Shown here piece after piece: positions 2,363-14,806 of a stretch of DNA of 24,731 nt (the first letter of the stretch is position 1; each line of letters starts with the position of its first letter). Source of the DNA: Bdellovibrionota bacterium (lineage in GTDB: Bacteria > Bdellovibrionota_C > UBA2361 > JBGSMV01); the NCBI GenBank assembly GCA_044356455.1, contig JBIKWF010000062.1:1-24731 (forward strand), given 5' to 3'. The notes under the pieces are model-generated. The model was not told where the DNA came from, searched no databases, and saw nothing but the letters and a program-made list of their open reading frames with translations. The position numbers and the translations under genes were made by a program.

Positions 2363-2794
2363 CTATCCGACTCCATATGGCACCTTGTAGCCTTCAATTG
2401 CAGCGGCACGAGCTAGCCTTTGGTCGAAGGTAATAAAAGTATCTCCTGCCGGATTACCCATGCTTGCCACCAGGGCGGCTGCCAATTGGAGTGCGTCTGC
2501 CGCGCGAAGTGGATGCGTGGCTACCAAACGCGAGGCAAGTTCACGAAGGCTGCTTGATGGTTGGATCTCGTGCCAATTTGCCGAGAGCTCCTCGAGGAGT
2601 TCGAGGGACTGTTCCCGTGCTTGCAAGGTAAGGGCACCCTCTCGGAAACGTCGTCCTATGGCGGTGCGGCACTCAAGGAGAGTGGACCACCAGACCCATA
2701 GCTCGCCGTCCTCCTTTGCGATTTCCACCATCGAAGCAGTCTGGGCTTCCTCGATGATCAGGGGGAGAATCGCGGAGCTGTCCCAAAATTTCAT
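2363..2794 (-). CDS. vapC: VapC-family PIN-domain toxin
   Basis: MKFWDSSAILPL, LRAADALQLAAA, FITFDQRL are PIN acidic motifs; 4-bp overlap with the upstream antitoxin. Confidence 0.92.
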   Translation of the reverse strand: MKFWDSSAILPLIIEEAQTASMVEIAKEDGELWVWWSTLLECRTAIGRRFREGALTLQAREQSLELLEELSANWHEIQPSSSLRELASRLVATHPLRAADALQLAAALVASMGNPAGDTFITFDQRLARAAAIEGYKVPYGVG

Positions 2795-3099
2795 AATTCG
2801 CGATCTCTCTCTTCGATGGCTGCTTGAATTACACTCGCGGAAGATGAGGCGCGAGGACGTTCAAGTAGGGAGGTGAGAGAGTTGCGTTTTCTTCTCGAAA
2901 TCGCCCCGTCAGCTTCAAGTTGAGCGAGGCGTGTATCTACCGACTTGTTTTGGTTGCTGCTCTCATCGCCCCTAAAGAGAGCCACTACGCGTACGAATGG
3001 CCTCTTTCTATCAAAAATGATCACTTCTTCTCCGCGAGCTGCGCGAGCGAGAAGAGCACTTAGGTTGTCTTTAAACTGGGTAATTGTGACCTTCTTCAT
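2791..3099 (-). CDS. Phd/YefM-family antitoxin
   Basis: MKKVTITQFKDNLSALLARAARGEEVIIFDRKRPFVRV is a typical Phd N-terminus; directly upstream of the PIN toxin. Confidence 0.9.
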   Translation of the reverse strand: MKKVTITQFKDNLSALLARAARGEEVIIFDRKRPFVRVVALFRGDESSNQNKSVDTRLAQLEADGAISRRKRNSLTSLLERPRASSSASVIQAAIEERDREL

Positions 3100-3181: not shown

Positions 3182-3219
3182 GCTGTGTAATTTCAATGCA
3201 TTAATTGAGTGGAGCATTC

Positions 3220-3705
3220 ATGATTCACGAAGTTTCCGGAGATATTCTTCTTTCAAGTGCACAAGCAATTGCTCATGGAATTGCCCCAAATGATAATTTT
3301 GGCCAGGGGCTCGCCCTTAGTCTGCGTGAACAGTGGCCCGCTCTTTACAAGGATTTCCGTCACTTCTGTCAAACTCGTCATCCGGAGGCTGGCAGTATCT
3401 GGGTCTGGGCGGGAGTTGGCGGGAAAAGAGTAGTGAACCTAATGACTCAGGAAGGATCTTACGAGTCGCACGGAAAGCCAGGAAAGGCGTCGACCTCTCA
3501 CGTGAATCATGCCCTCAAAGAGCTGCATGCCTGGATTGAATCAGAGAAGATTACTTCCATTGCCTTGCCAAAGCTTGCGACGGGAGTGGGGGGACTTGAG
3601 TGGAATGATGTGTATCCGCTCATTAAGAAGCACCTCGGAAGCTCTTCTGCTCAGGTGTATCTCTACACCACGTTCCATAAGGGGCAGAAGGCGGTTGAGG
3701 CTTAG
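3220..3705 (+). CDS. Stand-alone macrodomain protein (TARG1/Poa1p/DarG-macro-like)
   Basis: MIHEVSGDILL, AIAHG, FGQGLA, SIALPKLATGVGGLEW; GGAG SD at 3211-3214 favours ATG 3220 over TTG 3205. Confidence 0.85.
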   Translation: MIHEVSGDILLSSAQAIAHGIAPNDNFGQGLALSLREQWPALYKDFRHFCQTRHPEAGSIWVWAGVGGKRVVNLMTQEGSYESHGKPGKASTSHVNHALKELHAWIESEKITSIALPKLATGVGGLEWNDVYPLIKKHLGSSSAQVYLYTTFHKGQKAVEA

Positions 3706-3825
3706 GGAATCTCTCAAAAAGCCTGCTCTGTGAACTCTGTGGTTGATTTAAATCGTTGAAAAACCACAGAGGGCACAGAGTTCACAGAGAGAAAAAATAA
3801 AATAGCGATGTTTTTCAGAGGTTCC
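3706..3825. mobile_element. MITE family B copy 1 (120 bp)
   Basis: TIR GGAATCTCTCAAAAA...TTTTTCAGAGGTTCC, flanked by TTAG and CTAG; internal ctctgtg/cacagag 9-bp-periodic palindrome; homologous to 9043-9172 and 14678-14806. Confidence 0.8.
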
Positions 3826-3830
3826 CTAGC

Positions 3831-5195: not shown

Positions 5196-5201
5196 AGGCG
5201 T

Positions 5202-5229
5202 AGTATAGGGGCTTGGTGGGCGAGGTCAA
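5202..5229 (-). promoter_or_regulatory. sigma70 promoter of ffh (likely leaderless)
   Basis: Minus strand TTGACC (5229-5224), 16 nt, TATACT (5207-5202), 6 nt, then ATG 5195; no SD. Confidence 0.65.
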
Positions 5230-5306
5230 ATCTTGCGCGAGGGGGCGACAAGAAGCGACAACGGGAATCTGAATCGGCACGTCCTGCCCATAAGCCCGCA
5301 TCACCA

Positions 5307-5540
5307 GGTAGGGCGCGCCGTTCCGCCTCTGCCAGTAGGCGACGGCGCGACGCGCGCCCCGGCGTGCCGAAACAATTGCCGCAGGGCATCCATGGACGGT
5401 TGCTTTGCCGTAATCAGCGAAGGGGAAGTACAGGCTACGTGCCGGTATGAGAGATCTTTCGGCACGCTGAGGACAGCGCGTCCTACCTATTGGCGCGGCA
5501 TCTAGGTAGGGCGCCCTGTCCTCAGGGCGCCGCAAGATCT
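5307..5540. repeat. REP doublet array (family A), with a 35-bp insert in the first REP
   Basis: ggtagggcgcgccgt[insert 5322-5356]ccccggcgtgccg, linker, then an inverted pair at 5452-5540. Confidence 0.85.
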
Positions 5541-5625
5541 CTCTTGCCGACACCTGCTAGGTTTTTATCCGCCCCACAGATTACGCCATTGCTACAAACA
5601 TCACAGTTTGTGTTATATCCACCGA

Positions 5626-6321
5626 ATGATTCGTCTTGCTGATGTATTAAAAGATCTTGTTGATAAAAACCCGCTCCTGCAGTCAGGCCTTAGGCACCGG
5701 CTGCTTAATCTTACGCAGCTGAGCAAGTTTATTCGCCCCCAAATTGAGGCGCGTGCCAAGAAAGAGGCAAGCGAGGCGGCAATACTTATGGCGCTTTCTC
5801 GCCTTCAACAGTCCTTTGGTGAGATACCAAAATCTGAGGCAGAAAAAAAGTCAGGCGGCGTCTCGAGTGCTGATATTCACGTCGATAATATTTCGATTAA
5901 TGCTCAGCTCTGTGCCTTGAGCTTTCATAATTCTATAGAAGTGAATCGCGGGCTCAATTCTCTCTATAACCGCGTGCACCGCAAATCTGGATTCATCACC
6001 ATTACGCATGGGATGCAGGAGATTCGGGTTATCTTAGAAAGAGTCTCACTTGCGCTCGTGAAGGAGTGTGTCCCCGAGAAGCCGCTGATGAGCCATCAGC
6101 ATCTTGCTTCTTTAGGCGTGAGTTTTAAGAAAAATTACCTTGAGACCCCCGGATTTTTCTACCTCATGTTTCAGCAGCTCTATTTTCAGAACATCAATGT
6201 CGTGGAAATTGCCTCTACGGCGAATGAGCTTCTTATCTATGTACATGAAAACGACGTGCGTCTGGCGTTTGATACGCTCTATAATCGATTCTTGTTGGGG
6301 CAACGGGGGACTGCAAGCTAA
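5626..6321 (+). CDS. ACT-domain protein with N-terminal HTH-like region, putative amino-acid-sensing regulator
   Basis: N-terminal LLNLTQLSKFIRP...SEAAILMALSRL; C-terminal ETPGFFYLMFQQLYFQNINVVEIASTANELLIYV resembles aspartokinase-type ACT; no kinase domain. ATG 5626 preferred. Confidence 0.65.
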   Translation: MIRLADVLKDLVDKNPLLQSGLRHRLLNLTQLSKFIRPQIEARAKKEASEAAILMALSRLQQSFGEIPKSEAEKKSGGVSSADIHVDNISINAQLCALSFHNSIEVNRGLNSLYNRVHRKSGFITITHGMQEIRVILERVSLALVKECVPEKPLMSHQHLASLGVSFKKNYLETPGFFYLMFQQLYFQNINVVEIASTANELLIYVHENDVRLAFDTLYNRFLLGQRGTAS

Positions 6322-6334
6322 AGAATTGATGACA

Positions 6335-7516
6335 TTACGCTGCAACAAGAGTATTCGGCTCCGCTAGAAGCACACGCCCAGTGGCCTCCGCCACTCTGTC
6401 CAGATCCTCATAAGAAATCACCAAAGGAGGTAAGTAGCGTATCACCGTGGGGCCCGCAGGAATGGCCAAAACACCTTCATCGCTTAAGGCTTGAATATAA
6501 CTGGTAGATTTTTCTTTAAGCTGCAGCCCTACCATAAGTCCAAGGCGACGAATTTCTCGGACCTTGGGGGACTTAAGCGCAAGCAACTTCTCGGCGAAGT
6601 AGGCACCTTTCTTCTCGGCTGCTTCAGCAAGCTTTTCATCAAGCATAAAGGTAAGGGCAGCAAGCCCGGCTGCGCATGCCAAAGGACAGCCGCCAAAGGT
6701 AGTGCCGTGGGCGCCTACTTCTACTTTAATTTTGTCTGAGCAAAGCGTGGCTCCCATAGGGACTCCGCCTGCCATGGATTTTGCGAGGCACAAGATATCT
6801 GGCTCAAGACCAAAGTGCTCACAGGCGAACATTTTTCCCGTGCGGCAGAAGCCCGTCTGGATTTCATCAACAATAAAAAGCGCCCCGCGTTCGCGGCAAA
6901 GGTCTTGGGCCGCTTTAAAATATTCCTGCTCGCCTACGTAGACGCCGCCTTCACCCTGCACAATTTCGAGCATGACTCCGGCGGTGTGTTCATTGATGGC
7001 GCCTGAAAGTGCCTCAATACTTCCAAAGGGCACATGCACAAAGCCATCGACAAGGGGACCAAAACCATCGCGGTACTTTTGATTATGGGTAGCTGAAAGC
7101 GCACCGAGAGTTCTTCCGTGAAAACCTCTTACTGCGCAGATAAAGTTGGGTCTCCCTGTGCTCACTCGCGCAAATTTAATTGCCGCCTCAACGCTTTCTG
7201 CACCGGAGTTGCAAAGAAACACTTTGCTTAAGGGGGCAGGGGCGATGCTTATCAGCTTCTCCATGAGGCGAGAGCGCACGTCGTGCTGAAAAATGCCTGT
7301 GCAGGTGATGAGACGTGCAGCTTGTTCTTGAATAGCTTTCACGACGGCAGGATTGCAGTGCCCTACATTGACGGACCCTGCTCCTGCTGCGCAATCAATA
7401 TAACGCTTCCCTGTGTCATCCCACACATGCGCGCCAAGGCCACGCTCAAGGGTAAGGGCTCTTTTGGGAAAGAGGGGCAGCTCGTATCGATTCGAAAGTT
7501 CAGTGGCCTTATTCAT
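6335..7516 (-). CDS. lysJ: [LysW]-aminoadipate semialdehyde transaminase (class III PLP, LysJ/ArgD family)
   Basis: NSGAESVEAA, FHGRT, DEIQTG, LAKSMAGG, HGTTFGG; last gene of the lysW operon. Confidence 0.88.
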   Translation of the reverse strand: MNKATELSNRYELPLFPKRALTLERGLGAHVWDDTGKRYIDCAAGAGSVNVGHCNPAVVKAIQEQAARLITCTGIFQHDVRSRLMEKLISIAPAPLSKVFLCNSGAESVEAAIKFARVSTGRPNFICAVRGFHGRTLGALSATHNQKYRDGFGPLVDGFVHVPFGSIEALSGAINEHTAGVMLEIVQGEGGVYVGEQEYFKAAQDLCRERGALFIVDEIQTGFCRTGKMFACEHFGLEPDILCLAKSMAGGVPMGATLCSDKIKVEVGAHGTTFGGCPLACAAGLAALTFMLDEKLAEAAEKKGAYFAEKLLALKSPKVREIRRLGLMVGLQLKEKSTSYIQALSDEGVLAIPAGPTVIRYLPPLVISYEDLDRVAEATGRVLLAEPNTLVAA

Positions 7517-7528
7517 AAAGGGCGCCCA

Positions 7529-8332
7529 TTATTGAATAGTTGTGCCGCGTCCCGCCAATGCGTCCTCTATCGGGTGTGCTCCGCGGCCGTCCGCTAGTAT
7601 GACTCGGGGCGAGCCACTTTCAAAGAGCTTCCTGATGCCCATGATTTTTCTCCGCATGCGGCCTTGCACGCGCTCTTCCCAGCTTGGGAGGGTCTCTTTC
7701 TCGATGCGCGAGACGAGTGATTCTGGGTTTGCACGGTCGGAGAGGAGGCCGGGTGCTTCGATAAACTGAAGTATCGTAGAGGCATTGAGGGAACGGTGCA
7801 GGAGAGCCACGACATCGTCGTTGTCTGTATTAATCGCCCTGCCATCCGCATCAATAATAGGCACTGAGATTACGGGGGTGTATCCCGCCCCTAGAAGGAG
7901 CTGAAGGAGGCTCGTATTTACCGCTTTGGGCTTTCCGGAATTGTCCCTCACAATGAGGGTTTTCCCATTCTCTCGCACGCGAATCGCGCTATTTCGTTCG
8001 CCTTCAATGAGGCGGCCATCGATTCCTGAGAGGCCAAGTGCGTTAATGCCGTGGATTTGGCAGAGCTCTACGAGGCGCTTATTCCTAAGACCCGCGTAGG
8101 CCATCATCATCAGGTCAATCATCTCGTCATCTGAATGGGTGCTCGTTACCCCGCTCACTGAGGTAAGCGTGCGGAGGGGAATATTCAGGCGTTTGGCGAG
8201 GTCATCTCTTAGGGCGTTGGCGCCATGGACCAGAATCATAGGGCCGGCGCCTTTTTTCTGCTGCTCGGCGAGATCTGCAACTATTGCCGGGAGATTTATG
8301 GCGCTTCCGCCGCCAAGCTTTACTATCATCAT
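7529..8332 (-). CDS. lysZ: [LysW]-aminoadipate kinase (LysZ/ArgB family)
   Basis: IVKLGG, LVHGA, TSVSG, GLSGIDG, INTDND, GRMRRKI; lysW context. Confidence 0.9.
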   Translation of the reverse strand: MMIVKLGGGSAINLPAIVADLAEQQKKGAGPMILVHGANALRDDLAKRLNIPLRTLTSVSGVTSTHSDDEMIDLMMMAYAGLRNKRLVELCQIHGINALGLSGIDGRLIEGERNSAIRVRENGKTLIVRDNSGKPKAVNTSLLQLLLGAGYTPVISVPIIDADGRAINTDNDDVVALLHRSLNASTILQFIEAPGLLSDRANPESLVSRIEKETLPSWEERVQGRMRRKIMGIRKLFESGSPRVILADGRGAHPIEDALAGRGTTIQ

Positions 8333-8341
8333 AACGACTAC

Positions 8342-8974
8342 CTACATCCAAAATGCTTGATTTACGGGGGCTGGCTCCCAGCCCTGTTCCCCTTCAAAGG
8401 GCTGTGAGCACAAGACGCGAATGGGTCCATTTCGCACGTGCATTTGAAAATAGTCAGGCTTCTCATCGAACGCCGAATAGCAATAGGCACGGTGCTCGTT
8501 CGCAACGAGAAAGTTCATAGCTCGAATTCTCTTAGCCCGGGAGCGAATAGCGCGGGCGCCGGAGGAAATGGTTTCCATCCAATCGCCTTCATGCTGGGTT
8601 CTTAGGAAATTAAAAATCTTTTCTGCGCCAATTCGTCCTTCAGCTCGAATTCTTACTTCATGCAGTTCGCCGTTAAAGGCAAAAACAAGATTATCTGCCA
8701 GGAATGGCATGTTGTTTTCAACGCAGATTCCTTCATCGCGAAAGGCACTTCGTGCGTGAGCGATAAGGCAGGTGGTGGTTCCGAGATTCGGTAAGGCGTC
8801 CTCCCAAATTGGCTGGATGCTGTGGTGGCTTTTCCACTGAGCACCGTCCCACAAGGCCAAGCCCCAGCCGTGTCCCTGGTATTCGGGACTGTTTTTCGCC
8901 ACCTTTGCGAAGCGTTGGAGGAAGGGCTCTACCTCAAAGGGCTTTTCTGATTTGGCGTAAAGGAGTCGGCACAT
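8342..8974 (-). CDS. Class II glutamine amidotransferase / Ntn-hydrolase (EgtC/YafJ/Dug3-like)
   Basis: ATG 8974 gives MCRLL (Cys nucleophile at position 2); GHGWG, HARSA, NNMPF, FAFNG, CSQPF motifs; ends 9 bp before lysZ. Confidence 0.88.
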   Translation of the reverse strand: MCRLLYAKSEKPFEVEPFLQRFAKVAKNSPEYQGHGWGLALWDGAQWKSHHSIQPIWEDALPNLGTTTCLIAHARSAFRDEGICVENNMPFLADNLVFAFNGELHEVRIRAEGRIGAEKIFNFLRTQHEGDWMETISSGARAIRSRAKRIRAMNFLVANEHRAYCYSAFDEKPDYFQMHVRNGPIRVLCSQPFEGEQGWEPAPVNQAFWM

Positions 8975-9042
8975 AAACAATAGGTTAAGACCACCAGTAA
9001 TAACACAAAGATGAGGGGTATGGTCTTTGTGTGGTTCCCTAG

Positions 9043-9172
9043 GGAGCCTCTGAAAAAGATCGCTATTTTATTTTTTATCTCAGTGAACTCTGTGTCCTCT
9101 GTGGTTTTTTCAACAATTTAAATCAACCACAGAGGGCACAGAGTTCACAGAGCGGACTTTTTCAGAGATTCC
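9043..9172. mobile_element. MITE family B copy 2 (130 bp), inside the lys operon
   Basis: TIR GGAGCCTCTGAAAAA...TTTTTCAGAGATTCC with CTAG on both sides (9039-9042, 9173-9176); the right CTAG contains the lysY stop. Confidence 0.85.
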
Positions 9173-10216
9173 CTAGATTGGGTGTAGCCCTGAAAATTCC
9201 AAAGCGGTTGTTTCGGGCAGACCAAGCATCAGGTTCATTGCTTGCACAGCCTGTCCTGCGGCACCTTTCATGAGGTTGTCGATAGCGGAAATCACCACTA
9301 TGCGCCCAGTGTGCGGGTCTACTTCAAAACCCACATCACAATAATTGGTGCCCCAGAGAAGTTTAGGCTCCGGATAACGATAGTTACCTTGCCGGTCCTT
9401 CACTATCCGCACGAAGGGCTCTTTCCCATACACTTCTCGGTACATCTGCCAGAGTTCTTTCTCAGTTACCGGACGCGAGGGGAACACGCTTGCGGTTGCA
9501 AGCACTCCGCGCACCATATCGAGGGCAGTGAGCGAGAGATGCATGCTGTTCTCCGGAAGAGAAAGCTCTTGCAGTACCTCAGCCGTGTGCCGGTGGCCCG
9601 TAGGGGAGAAGGAGCGCACGGAATGACTTCTCTCGGGATGGTGAGAGCTCTCGCTTGAGACGCGGCCTCCCTCGCTCGAGCCGGCCTTAATGTCCACGAT
9701 GGCGGGCTGGGCACCAATTAGGCCAAATTTACTAAGAGGATAGAGCCCAAGAATCGTCGCCGTCGCGTTGCATCCTGCACTTGAAATTCGGGTAGAGCTC
9801 CGCATCTCTTCACGGTGGAGTTCAGGAATCCCGTAGACAAAGTCGATTAGCCGCTGGGGAAGGGGATGCTCATACCCGTACCAGCGCTGATAGGCGCTTG
9901 GAGTATTCAATCTAAAGTCGGCACTGAGGTCGATAAGCCGCGGAGCGAGACCTTCGAGGGTGTTTATGTGCTTGGCACTCTCGCCATGAGGCAAACAGCA
10001 AAAGAGCACATCAACGCTGCCAAGTTCTGCCATCTTCTTAAATGAGAGCTCGGAGCGTTTGCGAAGATGAGGGTGAGCGCGGTGGATAAACTGGCCGGCA
10101 AGGCGCTCTGAGCTTACCTCGGCGACCTCTACGCCTGGGTGCGAGAGAAGAAGCCTCAGAAGCTCTCCTCCCGTGTACCCCGAGGCTCCTACAATACCAA
10201 CACGAACCTGGCTCAT
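9173..10216 (-). CDS. lysY: [LysW]-aminoadipyl-phosphate reductase (LysY/ArgC family)
   Basis: [54 protein letters not shown] overlap with lysX. Confidence 0.92.
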
Positions 10217-11070
10217 ACTGCTCTACTTCTTGCGACCTTTAGGACGTAGTCCACCATGGCTCCTGGAATATTAACGCCAGTGGTGGTCACGCTGTTCTTA
10301 AACTCCATCGTGTGATTGACCTCGTTGACGATAATTCCATCTTTCGTCTCAAAGAGGTCAATCGCCACCATCCCGCCGCCTACCGCTTTTGCTGCGCGCA
10401 CGGAAAGTTCACCAATTTCTGCGGTGACCGGACAGTTGCTTGCAACTCCGCCTCGCGCCGTATTGGTGATCCAGTGGTCTGAGGTGCGGTAGATTGCGGC
10501 GATACATTCGTCGCCTACCACAAAACTTCGAATATCCCGGCCGTGCTTTTCGACGTAGCGCTGCAGATAGAAAATGGAATGATGGTAGCTTCCAAGAACC
10601 TCTTTGTGTTCAAGCAGCGCCTCGGCAGCATCGCGATCGTTGATTTTTGCGAGCAGCCTGCCCCATGAACCAACTGCTGGTTTCATTACCACCGGGTAAC
10701 CCATCTCTTCTATCGTCGCGAGCGCTGATTCCGCCGTAAAGGCGACTCGCACCTCAGGTTGCGGAACTCCGGCGTTTTGCAGAGCGATAGAGGTAAGTAA
10801 CTTATCTCCGCAGGTAGTCGCGATGGCAGAGCTGTTCACACAAGCCACGCCACCCGCTTCAAAAAGCTGAAGTGCCGTGAGTCCTCGCGAGTGGGTGATG
10901 GAGCGCTCAAGCACTGCGTCAACCCCAAAGCCGCGGCTTCCAAGTTTAAAGGTCAAAACTCGGTCGTCAATCATCACGGTGGACACGTTGGGACGGGACT
11001 CGAGTTCATCGAGCAACATCTTTTCATCTTTGCGGATGAGGGTGTGCAAAAACCCAATGCGAGTGTTCAT
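10213..11070 (-). CDS. lysX: Alpha-aminoadipate--LysW ligase (RimK-family ATP-grasp)
   Basis: [37 protein letters not shown] match the LysX type rather than ArgX; ATG 11070 lies 2 bp after the lysW stop. Confidence 0.93.
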
Positions 11071-11072
11071 GC

Positions 11073-11237
11073 TTATTCTCCCCAATCCTCGCCCTCTTCA
11101 GGGGCTTCGGCGAGAAGTACGGGGGCAAGACCAGCTACTTCAAGGTCTGCGCCGCAGTCTCCGCATTGAACAAGTTCACCTTTAACGGTATCGGCCGCGA
11201 GTTTCACTCCGGCGCTGCACACTGGACAATCTCCCAT
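11073..11237 (-). CDS. lysW: Amino-group carrier protein LysW (54 aa; not in ORF track)
   Basis: Manual translation [54 protein letters not shown]: two CxxC motifs, C-terminal EDWGE, GGAGG SD at 11246-11242. Confidence 0.96.
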
Positions 11238-11392
11238 ACATCCTCCGAACAAACATGGTTCGGTAGAGTTGTAGGGGGAATAGAGCTTGGCGCCAAGTTT
11301 TAGGTTGCCGGCAACAAAGTCTATCAGAAAGTGTTAGGAATATAACGAGGCCGGTTTTGGGCGACTGCTGCTGGTAGGGGTTCAATATGTCG

Positions 11393-11642
11393 CCGCGTGC
11401 CAGGGCGGAAGATCTTGCGGCACCGCGAGGACGCGGCGCCCTACCAAGATGCGACGCCTATGGGTAGGGCGCGCCGTTCCGCCTCTGCCAGTAGGCGACG
11501 GCGCGACGCGCGCCCCGGCGTGCCGAATCAAATGCCGTGGGTTAGGCAGGGGGTGAGGGTCTCGTAATTATTAAGCTGGCAAAAATGTGCCACGTGCCAG
11601 GACGAAAGATCTTGCGGCACCGCGGGGACGCGGCGCCCTACC
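11393..11642. repeat. REP doublet array (family A), with a 35-bp insert
   Basis: Units start at agatc 11410 and 11607; insert at 11478-11512 is identical to 5322-5356. Confidence 0.85.
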
Positions 11643-11668
11643 TTGGACGACAATTAAGGGGAGTATTC

Positions 11669-12963: not shown

Positions 12964-13104
12964 AGTTCCTAAAGACTGCCTTTATTCTGTCCGGCACTCA
13001 AATATTTTTGATTTTGAATGTCCTGCAGCGCAGCTGGTTTATGCAAAATCAATAAGTTAAGGCGCACCAGGAAATGCTCCCCGATCAATGCCGGGCGGGT
13101 TCAA

Positions 13105-13486
13105 AGATCCTGCGGCACCGCAGGGACGCGGCGCCCTACCAAGATGCGACGCCTATGGGTAGGGCGCGCCGAATCAAATGCCGCGGGGCTGGCAGGCAGC
13201 GGGGATTTCGCGATTCGCAAGGGGACAAAAATATGCCGCGTGCCAAGGCGAAAGATCTTTCGGCACCGCAGGGACGCGGCGCCCTACCAAGATGCTGCGC
13301 CTATGGGTAGGGCGCGCCGTCCCCGGCGTGCCGCAACAAATGCTGCGGGGCATCCACGGACCGATTCCTTTGCGGAGTCGTTTCGGTGAGCAAATACGAA
13401 AGATTTGCCAGGACGAGAGATCTTTCGGCACCGCAGGGCTTGTCGCGACGTCGCCTACTGGCAGAGGCGGAACGCGGCGCCCTACC
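13105..13486. repeat. REP doublet tandem array (family A), three units
   Basis: Units start at 13105, 13253 and 13418; unit 1 has a 14-bp deletion in its second REP; unit 3 has a 33-bp insert (13439-13471). Confidence 0.88.
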
Positions 13487-14673
13487 TACGGATTATTATC
13501 GGCAACACGCTCGGCATCCGCGCTCATGATGTAACCCCGCGCTGGATTCTCAATATGCAGCCACCTTCCACGCGGCGCATCGAGCTGCGTATCCTCAATG
13601 ACAACAACGGTAATTCCCGGCATCAGTTTTTGAACTGGGAGACTTCGATTATCGGGGCCTGAATACACCGTCGTGCGGTAGGTAATCTCCCATACTTGCC
13701 TTTGTCCCGGCGGAGGCGCCCCGGGTGCATCAAGAGGAGCCAGCGCGAAAGTATCTGCAGGGCGCTTTGAACTTGAAGGCGGGGGCTGTGAGCCCGTTCT
13801 ACTCCAAACCCATTCGGAGCTAGAAGATCCAGAGGGCCTCGATGTAGAAGCGGGGGTAGGACCTTGGCCTAAAAATCTCTCCATGGCCCTCGGCTCAAGC
13901 TCTTTCAGTTTTGCGAGACGCTCTTCGCTGCTGGGATGGGACGAGAGCACTGCAATCGGTGCTCCAGAATATCCAGGGCGATCCTTAACCCGTTCCCAAA
14001 AGTCTAGCGCAGCCCGCGGATCGTAGCCGGCGTCCGCCATGAGAAAGAGCCCAATTTGGTCTGCTTCGAGTTCCTTTTTCTGTTGGTCAGGGTTCACCAG
14101 CACTGCGTTGACCACTTCTTTCACGGCCATAGCGGCAACATTGGCGAGCGCTCCGTAAGGGCCTGTTTGCGCTACGACTTGACCTGCAACATTTCCCGCC
14201 ACTCCACCGATAATGGAGTTAACTTCTTCCATGGGGTCGGGATTGGTGTGCCCCGCAAGCACGTGTGCGAGTTCGTGACCCAAAATTGCGGCGAATTCGT
14301 CATCGTTTCGGATATCGTCAAAGAGACCTGTCCAGACAAAGATGAAATTACCGCGCGTGGCGCCGGCATTCTTAAATTTCGGGTCGACAAGCACATACAC
14401 ATTCCAAGGATTGCGGTCGACCTTTGCCGCCGCCGTGAGCTTGTCGACAATTGTGCGCACACGGTCAATGCGCGCATCGCTTGAGTCGATGGGGTAACGG
14501 CGAGAGAGTTCCCGAAAAACTTGCTGGCCATACTCTTCGTCTTCGGCGGTGGGCGATGCTTGCCTCGGAATTTCGCCCGCGGGAATAGGCTTGCGCTGGG
14601 AGGCGCATCCCATGAGGAGTGCTACCGCGAGCACAAGAAGAGTCTGAGAGAAGTAGCGCGCCGTAATGGTCAT
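13486..14673 (-). CDS. M48-family zinc metallopeptidase lipoprotein with C-terminal SH3b-like domain
   Basis: Lipobox LMGC; HELAH; ELEADQIG; AGYDPRAA; SSHPSSEER; Ser/Pro linker followed by TVYSGP...GRWLHI...GYI. Confidence 0.88.
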   Translation of the reverse strand: MTITARYFSQTLLVLAVALLMGCASQRKPIPAGEIPRQASPTAEDEEYGQQVFRELSRRYPIDSSDARIDRVRTIVDKLTAAAKVDRNPWNVYVLVDPKFKNAGATRGNFIFVWTGLFDDIRNDDEFAAILGHELAHVLAGHTNPDPMEEVNSIIGGVAGNVAGQVVAQTGPYGALANVAAMAVKEVVNAVLVNPDQQKKELEADQIGLFLMADAGYDPRAALDFWERVKDRPGYSGAPIAVLSSHPSSEERLAKLKELEPRAMERFLGQGPTPASTSRPSGSSSSEWVWSRTGSQPPPSSSKRPADTFALAPLDAPGAPPPGQRQVWEITYRTTVYSGPDNRSLPVQKLMPGITVVVIEDTQLDAPRGRWLHIENPARGYIMSADAERVADNNP

Positions 14674-14677
14674 CTAG

Positions 14678-14806
14678 GGAACCTCTGAGAAACCTCGATA
14701 TTTTATTTTTTTCTCTCCGTGATCTCTGTGTGCTCTGTGGTTTTCAACAATTTAAATCAACCACAGAGGGCACAGAGTCCACAGAGCAGACTTTTTCAGA
14801 TCTTCC
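14678..14806. mobile_element. MITE family B copy 3 (129 bp)
   Basis: TIR GGAACCTCTGAGAAA...TTTTTCAGATCTTCC, flanked by CTAG and ATAG; 4 bp from the M48 start codon. Confidence 0.8.

Follow-up and report, generated by a model that had tools for sequence, protein, structure and literature searches.

In the window (the whole stretch of 24,731 nucleotides that was analysed) a cysteine hydrolase of the N-terminal nucleophile (Ntn) type is encoded in a LysW cluster that lacks another release enzyme, and this hydrolase most probably cuts the γ-amide that links the last Glu of LysW to lysine, via a thioester on Cys2, and so replaces LysK. To our knowledge, the release step has been known so far only for the metal enzyme LysK. 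In the proposed cycle, LysX, LysZ, LysY and LysJ would build lysine (or ornithine) on the γ-carboxyl group of the last Glu of LysW, and the loaded carrier would dock through its acidic body and its EDWG tail, such that Trp52 and Gly53 are placed on Gly116, the position at which the Asp of other class II amidotransferases holds a free α-amino group. Arg75 would take the C-terminal carboxylate and Asn101-Gly102 would provide the oxyanion hole, while Cys2 would attack the γ-amide between the last Glu of LysW and the α-amino group of lysine, giving a thioester that is then hydrolysed, so that the amino acid is freed and LysW is recycled. By the same reaction a LysW that ends in Gln would become the Glu form.

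The operon and the hydrolase

The hydrolase gene is part of a same-strand run in the order lysW, lysX, lysY, hydrolase, lysZ and lysJ:

11073..11237, reverse strand: lysW, carrier of 54 amino acids ending in EDWGE (PF21344, E 1.8e-16)
10213..11070, reverse strand: lysX, ligase with the signature F-I-T-NS (TIGR02144, 355.8 bits, cut-off 275.6)
9173..10216, reverse strand: lysY/argC, reductase (TIGR01850, 387 bits)
8342..8974, reverse strand: Ntn hydrolase (class II amidotransferase/EgtC fold), 210 amino acids, proposed LysW-γ-glutamyl-amino-acid hydrolase replacing LysK
7529..8332, reverse strand: lysZ, [LysW]-aminoadipate kinase (NF010659, 255.9 bits, cut-off 223)
6335..7516, reverse strand: lysJ/argD, aminotransferase, the last gene of the run, with no lysK after it

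LysK is absent from this 93%-complete genome, in which the best match reached 28.9 bits against a cut-off of 163.1 (TIGR01902), while five other M20 peptidases are present. The hydrolase protein itself has no M20 match in Pfam and NCBIfam searches, and beside its gene there are LysW-pathway genes and no egt genes. The LysX signature F-I-T-NS is of the aminoadipate type (Table 1 of PMC12998189), whereas homocitrate synthase, homoisocitrate dehydrogenase and a dedicated homoaconitase were not found by blast in the 93%-complete genome, nor was a lysA over the cut-off, so that no source of aminoadipate is apparent here, which speaks against the proposal; the cluster itself has no homocitrate synthase gene, and argJ is missing from the genome. 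The product could be lysine made from salvaged aminoadipate, or ornithine; we infer lysine rather than ornithine. The signature does not separate hydrolase from LysK clusters, since it occurs in 93 of 122 LysX rows beside the hydrolase gene and in 25 of 27 beside LysK.

A separate arginine cluster of the acetyl type, its genes named by eye and blast, is found elsewhere in the genome (contig C169:14990-26376) and contains argH, a typA-like gene, argG, an ACT-like gene, argC, an argF'-like carbamoyltransferase gene and argB, as well as a P-loop protein of ~350 amino acids that may stand in for ArgA and that we take to resemble DUF1611. An ACT-like protein (PF22468, E 0.009) is also encoded at 5608-6321 on the forward strand of the window, convergent to lysJ; genes that appear similar by eye lie beside 6 loci of the near clade and 17 of the far clade described below, and at C169:21469-22242 in the arginine cluster, making these a candidate regulator family of lysine and arginine synthesis. 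PLP-decarboxylase-like genes under the lysA cut-off were seen on contigs C1, C174, C202 and C209, those of C202 and C209 being alike and possibly belonging to metallophore or polyamine pathways. A further Ntn-like protein (C104:8410-9468) starts with MCML and has no Asn-Gly motif, and its residue at the Asp site could not be assigned by alignment. The lysY and hydrolase genes are separated by a 198-base spacer with a self-complementary repeat of ~135 bases (9039-9172; also at 3706-3829 and 14674-14806); a blastn search of the genome with this spacer gave 476 pieces, indicating that a MITE/REP-like element has entered the operon. The operon is flanked by dispersed palindromic repeats of another family (11241-11660, 5201-5600, 13103-13487 and 59-246), for which blastn gave 298 and 252 pieces genome-wide, and a Phd-PIN toxin-antitoxin pair and a macro-domain protein are encoded at 2363-3099 (reverse strand) and 3205-3705 (forward strand).

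The hydrolase is read from a single open reading frame (8342-8974, reverse strand, 210 amino acids) that starts with MCRLL, so that Cys2 directly follows the initiator Met, which would have to be removed to free the nucleophile. Its start has no clear Shine-Dalgarno sequence, and a scan for promoters and terminators gave counts at or near the shuffle level. The residues on which the argument turns are the following:

8969..8971, reverse strand: Cys2, N-terminal nucleophile after presumed removal of Met, present in 120/120 close homologs and in the LysW interface of the model
8747..8758, reverse strand: HARS (residues 73-76), with Arg75 equivalent to GlmS Arg73 and GFAT Arg95 of the glutamate pocket
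8702..8716, reverse strand: NNMPF (87-91), with Met89 at the GlmS His86 site, variable
8669..8677, reverse strand: FNG (100-102), the Asn-Gly of the oxyanion hole
8621..8638, reverse strand: GRIGAE (113-118), with Gly116 (codon 8627-8629) in place of the Asp of GxTDSE
8633..8656, reverse strand: VRIRAEGR (107-114); in the model the LysW tail is lined by 100-110, with 113-114 absent from the interface list
8522..8554, reverse strand: RAIRSRAKRIR (141-151), conserved in part; 141-142 and 145-148 lie in the model interface

The initial annotation, made by eye, had held that the N-terminal Cys, the Arg of HAR and the NG motif are kept, and indeed Cys2, Arg75, Asn101 and Gly102 are each present in all 120 close homologs, as are His73 and Gly116, a degree of conservation that, judged from the aligned sequences, is not chance. 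The AlphaFold model of the protein (pLDDT 91.6, pTM 0.90) has the αββα fold of class II amidotransferases and Ntn enzymes, and among solved structures it is closest to EgtC (Z 25.3, rmsd 1.8 Å, 197 aligned residues, 17% identity), followed by GlmS (Z 21.5), PurF (Z 20.4) and two uncharacterised stand-alone proteins; Foldseek likewise puts EgtC first. A single-sequence search of the PDB reached EgtC at only E 0.43-0.65, so that profile and fold searches were needed. The scores for Pfam GATase_4 (PF13230; 21.1 bits, cut-off 23) and for NCBIfam EgtC (TIGR03442; 34.9 bits, cut-off 218.65) both stay under their cut-offs, and an atlas search returned GATase_4/EgtC names only.

A search for longer forms of the hydrolase, which counts as weak evidence by the tool's own note, gave five proteins, three with a Pfam AA_kinase domain and one with LysY domains, and none has an ammonia-using synthase domain. 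These fusions were discarded as evidence, since of the four that were read three look frameshifted and the one clean fusion is a singleton. The latter, an in-frame hydrolase-LysZ fusion (P0275) of 481 amino acids, is a single sequence that may be real or may stem from an assembly indel.

Gly116 and the predicted complex with LysW

In class II amidotransferases the Asp of GxTDSE binds the free α-amino group of Gln. A passage on the pocket in PMC7000685 lists Arg, Trp, Thr, two His and Gly, but not the Asp. The initial annotation had read GxTDSE as GRIGAE, with Asp replaced by Gly, and a profile alignment bears this out. Using hhalign, 120 family sequences were aligned with 16 YafJ-like (probability 98.2) and 11 DUG3/EgtC-like sequences (98.6), and in both alignments Gly116 falls on the Asp, so that the canonical site holds no Asp: G113-R-I-G116-A-E-K-I-F lies on G-E-T-D-S-E-K-A-F in the case of E. 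coli YafJ, and on GQTDSEHVF in that of the DUG3/EgtC-like set. A GlmS-like alignment gave the same register, but at a probability of only 10, and by residue count the site corresponds to Asp123 of E. coli GlmS; the equivalence is thus a sequence-profile result backed by the fold match rather than a residue-level superposition.

The Gly is invariant in the family. Besides the 120 close homologs, it is present in 115 of 116 representatives from the 50% library (the query and the proteins of 170-290 amino acids among the 150 listed of 1005 matches), where the one sequence without it is garbled; the sole Asp row in the table of 117 is PurF. As controls, 61 class II amidotransferases without linkage to lysW were taken, including four of this genome and three of E. 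coli (one further locus was removed because it is itself a member of the hydrolase family). Of the 58 that were readable, two of them read as Asp by eye, 57 have Asp, one has Glu and none has Gly, and EgtC keeps the Asp as well, reading TVDSA in the alignment text. A Gly common among homologs unlinked to lysW would have spoken against a special role of the substitution; it is found in none of these controls, and no clearly unlinked family member was seen among 159 loci. The controls are mostly distant (YafJ-, DUG3-, GlmS- and PurF-like), and nearer unlinked relatives of the Gly type may exist among the other 855 of the 1005 matches.

These counts bear on the reading suggested by the database names, that the protein is an ordinary stand-alone glutaminase or small-molecule γ-glutamyl hydrolase (YafJ/DUG3/EgtC-like), carried in the operon as a passenger and without action on LysW. 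Its fold and its Cys, Arg and Asn-Gly motifs match such enzymes, but these keep the Asp; moreover, the last step of the pathway would then be left without an enzyme, and LysW docks onto the hydrolase above the controls in the model described below. We also know of no LysW step that needs ammonia. A passenger of this kind is therefore very improbable.

Two other positions of the pocket differ from GlmS. Phe78 occupies the site of GlmS Thr76 in 94 of 117 rows, a change that the initial annotation had missed. The reading of NxHPF as NNMPF was correct for the motif (87-91), whereas His-to-Met as a sign of a peptide substrate is weak and was dropped, since PurF has Gln and EgtC has Ala at that site; among the 117 rows the site is Gln in 64 and Met in 46, with Met in the near clade and Gln in the far clade.

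The structure of the complex was predicted from the family alignment and the LysW of the window. The model scored 0.78 (runs 0.78, 0.79, 0.78) against 0.03 for the best control, and it passed a mark that 116 of 157 solved pairs reach, as against 2 of 215 mismatched ones; with an own alignment, as used here, these reference counts apply only roughly. At least 97% of the contacts are common to the runs, with a partner pLDDT of at least 90. On the enzyme side the interface comprises residues 1-2, 75-78, 89, 100-110, 115-117, 119-120, 127 and parts of 138-148, and on the LysW side residues 18-22, 31, 33-34 and 45-54. The earlier expectation that the EDWGE tail would reach the catalytic site agrees with the model, in which the tail is placed at Cys2, Arg75 and the Asn-Gly motif, above the controls; the contact to Cys2 is read from the interface lists, with no Glu54-Cys2 pair among the best pairs listed. 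Likewise, the idea that loss of the Asp makes room for the EDWG tail fits the predicted placement of Trp52 and Gly53 on Gly116, with Trp52 further placed on Leu104, Val107, Ala117, Lys119 and Ile120, and Gly53 on Gly102, Glu103 and Leu104. As a prediction, the model supports binding of the LysW tail at the active site. It represents unloaded LysW and an enzyme that still carries Met1, and it may draw on other LysW complexes, although the fold matches include no solved complex of LysW with an Ntn enzyme.

The proposal that the two Arg-rich stretches dock the acidic carrier holds in part: both lie partly in the predicted interface, while Arg114 and Arg151 are not listed there, and across the 120 close homologs positions 108, 114, 146, 148 and 151 (R108, R114, R146, K148, R151) are mostly basic, whereas R141, R144 and R149 are not. 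An overall basic charge as the basis of docking was rejected, since the net charge of the hydrolase is -1 and the median of the 120 homologs is -1.5.

Gene linkage, LysK and the end of LysW

A scan of species genomes returned at least 571 relatives of the hydrolase, of which 80 species-level loci were taken. Within this near clade, 79 of the 80 loci have at least one LysW-pathway gene and 52 have all five; homocitrate synthase is found in 40 and an M20 peptidase in none. The loci come from Ignavibacteriota, Calditrichota, Gammaproteobacteria, Acidobacteriota, Planctomycetota, Bdellovibrionota and an archaeon, among others. A distant clade, ~30% identical and likewise with the Gly, was represented by 79 metagenome loci from 248 relatives: 72 have pathway genes, 32 all five, 26 homocitrate synthase and none an M20 peptidase, and the hydrolase gene follows lysJ, which is the slot of LysK in LysK clusters. 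All eight loci without pathway genes have less than 460 bases upstream of the hydrolase gene. Genes for lysyl-tRNA synthetases are common beside the distant-clade loci (by eye and blast). In some hydrolase clusters (L119, L201, L015) two lysX genes stand in tandem, of which one has the normal signature and the other a degenerate C-terminal motif; the pair may form a hetero-oligomer, or the specificity may have changed.

Since acyl transfer is within reach of Ntn enzymes that form thioesters, the hydrolase might instead be a transpeptidase that passes the γ-glutamyl group of LysW or its cargo to an acceptor other than water. No acceptor-related gene is conserved at these loci, where the common neighbours are lysine-pathway genes, homocitrate synthase and lysyl-tRNA synthetases, and transfer is very improbable, the least credible of the readings weighed here.

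Hydrolase and LysK exclude each other. In genome searches of hydrolase carriers, LysK (TIGR01902) was over the cut-off in 0/50, 0/49 and 0/1 genomes, among which some occur twice and completeness is mostly not given, and 4 of 14 controls passed. In the phylum of the window, LysX was found in 7 of 96 genomes, of which three have only the hydrolase and four only LysK, located in the cluster. In order to avoid selection by the hydrolase gene, lysW was also searched in four group samples (84 rows), and 60 LysW-centred regions were taken after six centre or already covered genomes and the 18 weakest rows had been left out; the M20 peptidases in these regions were scored with a profile of four confirmed LysK proteins. 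The hydrolase alone occurs in 18 regions, LysK (M20) alone in 24 and both in none, in groups that were picked as containing hydrolase carriers and whose kin are not independent. The remainder are five regions cut by contig ends and 13 with LysW-like proteins that have other tails and no cluster. In the 24 genomes with LysK clusters, a family profile search found the hydrolase family in 0/24, with only two weak matches, both of which have the Asp. The 13 LysW-like proteins (L215, L241, L244, L248, L250, L251, L253-L259), mostly from one phylum sample (G040), are zinc-ribbon proteins with EDWSE, EDWNE, EEDEY or other acidic tails, and no LysW-pathway genes are present in the stretch taken around them.

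The hydrolase gene is further accompanied by an unusual carrier end, which the initial annotation had missed. LysW ends in Gln (EDWGQ type) in 14 of the 58 canonical tails of one gene-centred set and in 8 of the 32 of the other, and in the LysW-centred clusters in 9 of 18 with the hydrolase and in 0 of 24 with LysK. In a quick tree of 104 hydrolases, a few long branches of which may stem from wrongly picked starts, the end residue of the linked LysW changes 19 times by parsimony, at least seven of these changes being forced by well-supported branches. LysX needs a γ-carboxylate, so that a Gln-ended carrier must be deamidated first, and a glutaminase fold that accepts peptide-linked Glx would be an obvious candidate for this; the hydrolase probably also deamidates Gln-ended carriers.

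The same data could be read such that the hydrolase is only a maturase or editor of LysW, acting on Gln ends and on intermediates that are mis-loaded or stalled, and that the release of lysine falls to an ArgE/DapE-like M20 peptidase encoded elsewhere. That Gln-ended LysW occurs only with the hydrolase, and that the end residue flips repeatedly across the tree, would be expected of such an enzyme, and the docking model fits it equally well. M20 peptidases under the cut-off are common in carrier genomes and could release the product; in one set of 50 carrier genomes all have them, the best with 115.9 bits against the LysK cut-off of 163.1. However, 74 of the 104 linked carriers already end in Glu and the hydrolase gene is nevertheless kept, a replacement, unlike an add-on, would be expected to show the strict mutual exclusion with LysK, and one carrier genome (G238) gave no LysK-like candidate at all. 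A role in editing only is accordingly improbable, and release of lysine from LysW by the hydrolase is the preferred reading. Beyond this, it is an evenly balanced question whether a glutaminase fold has been turned, mainly by the loss of one Asp, into a protein-processing enzyme that both matures Gln-ended carriers and releases lysine, and that defines a second, metal-independent LysW branch, spread over many groups of bacteria and archaea, where the codon for the terminal Glu, supposedly essential, is free to drift.

Relation to known systems

In the full-text literature searched, which contains few subscription papers, no paper was found that links LysW to such an Ntn enzyme, nor one that contains "LysW" together with "glutamine amidotransferase". 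The text of the GapMind 2026 preprint (10.1101/2024.10.14.618325), whose supplements may bear on the subject, has no LysK, Ntn, EgtC or amidotransferase terms. What is new here is that the Asp-to-Gly site was tested against controls and that a model with the tail in the active site passed. If the proposed function is true, it would fill the missing last lysine step in hundreds of genomes that now seem broken or auxotrophic to annotators (at least 571 relatives in the species collection; 2888 proteins), and it would add a second, unrelated release chemistry to the LysW pathway. It would also provide a one-residue rule for a large and poorly named family, with Asp marking the enzymes for free glutamine and Gly those for carrier tails, and it would predict a new reaction, the deamidation of the C-terminal Gln of a protein.

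The closest parallel to the proposed function is LysK, which PMC12998189 presents as the hydrolase of the last step. The LysK/ArgE-type enzymes (M20, TIGR01902) share the proposed reaction and the place in the pathway, and in the distant clade also the slot after lysJ. By contrast, LysK is a metal enzyme of ~350 amino acids, unrelated in fold and chemistry to the cysteine Ntn hydrolase of 210 amino acids, which was never found in a cluster together with LysK and which goes with Gln-ended carriers.

The closest solved fold is that of EgtC, the γ-glutamyl-hercynylcysteine sulfoxide hydrolase (PDB 4zfj, 4zfk and 4zfl; TIGR03442), likewise a stand-alone Ntn enzyme that removes a γ-glutamyl protecting group. 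The Glu of the EgtC substrate has a free α-amino group, and EgtC retains the Asp, whereas the hydrolase has Gly116 and no egt genes beside it. With GlmS, PurF, AsnB, YafJ/GATase_4 and DUG3-like proteins the hydrolase shares the equivalents of Cys1, Arg73 and Asn98-Gly99, with fold Z-scores of 18.9-21.5 for GlmS, PurF and the YafJ-like protein of P. aeruginosa (1te5). It differs from the GlmS type in three substitutions of the pocket, Asp123 to Gly, Thr76 to Phe and His86 to Met or Gln, and in having no synthase domain.
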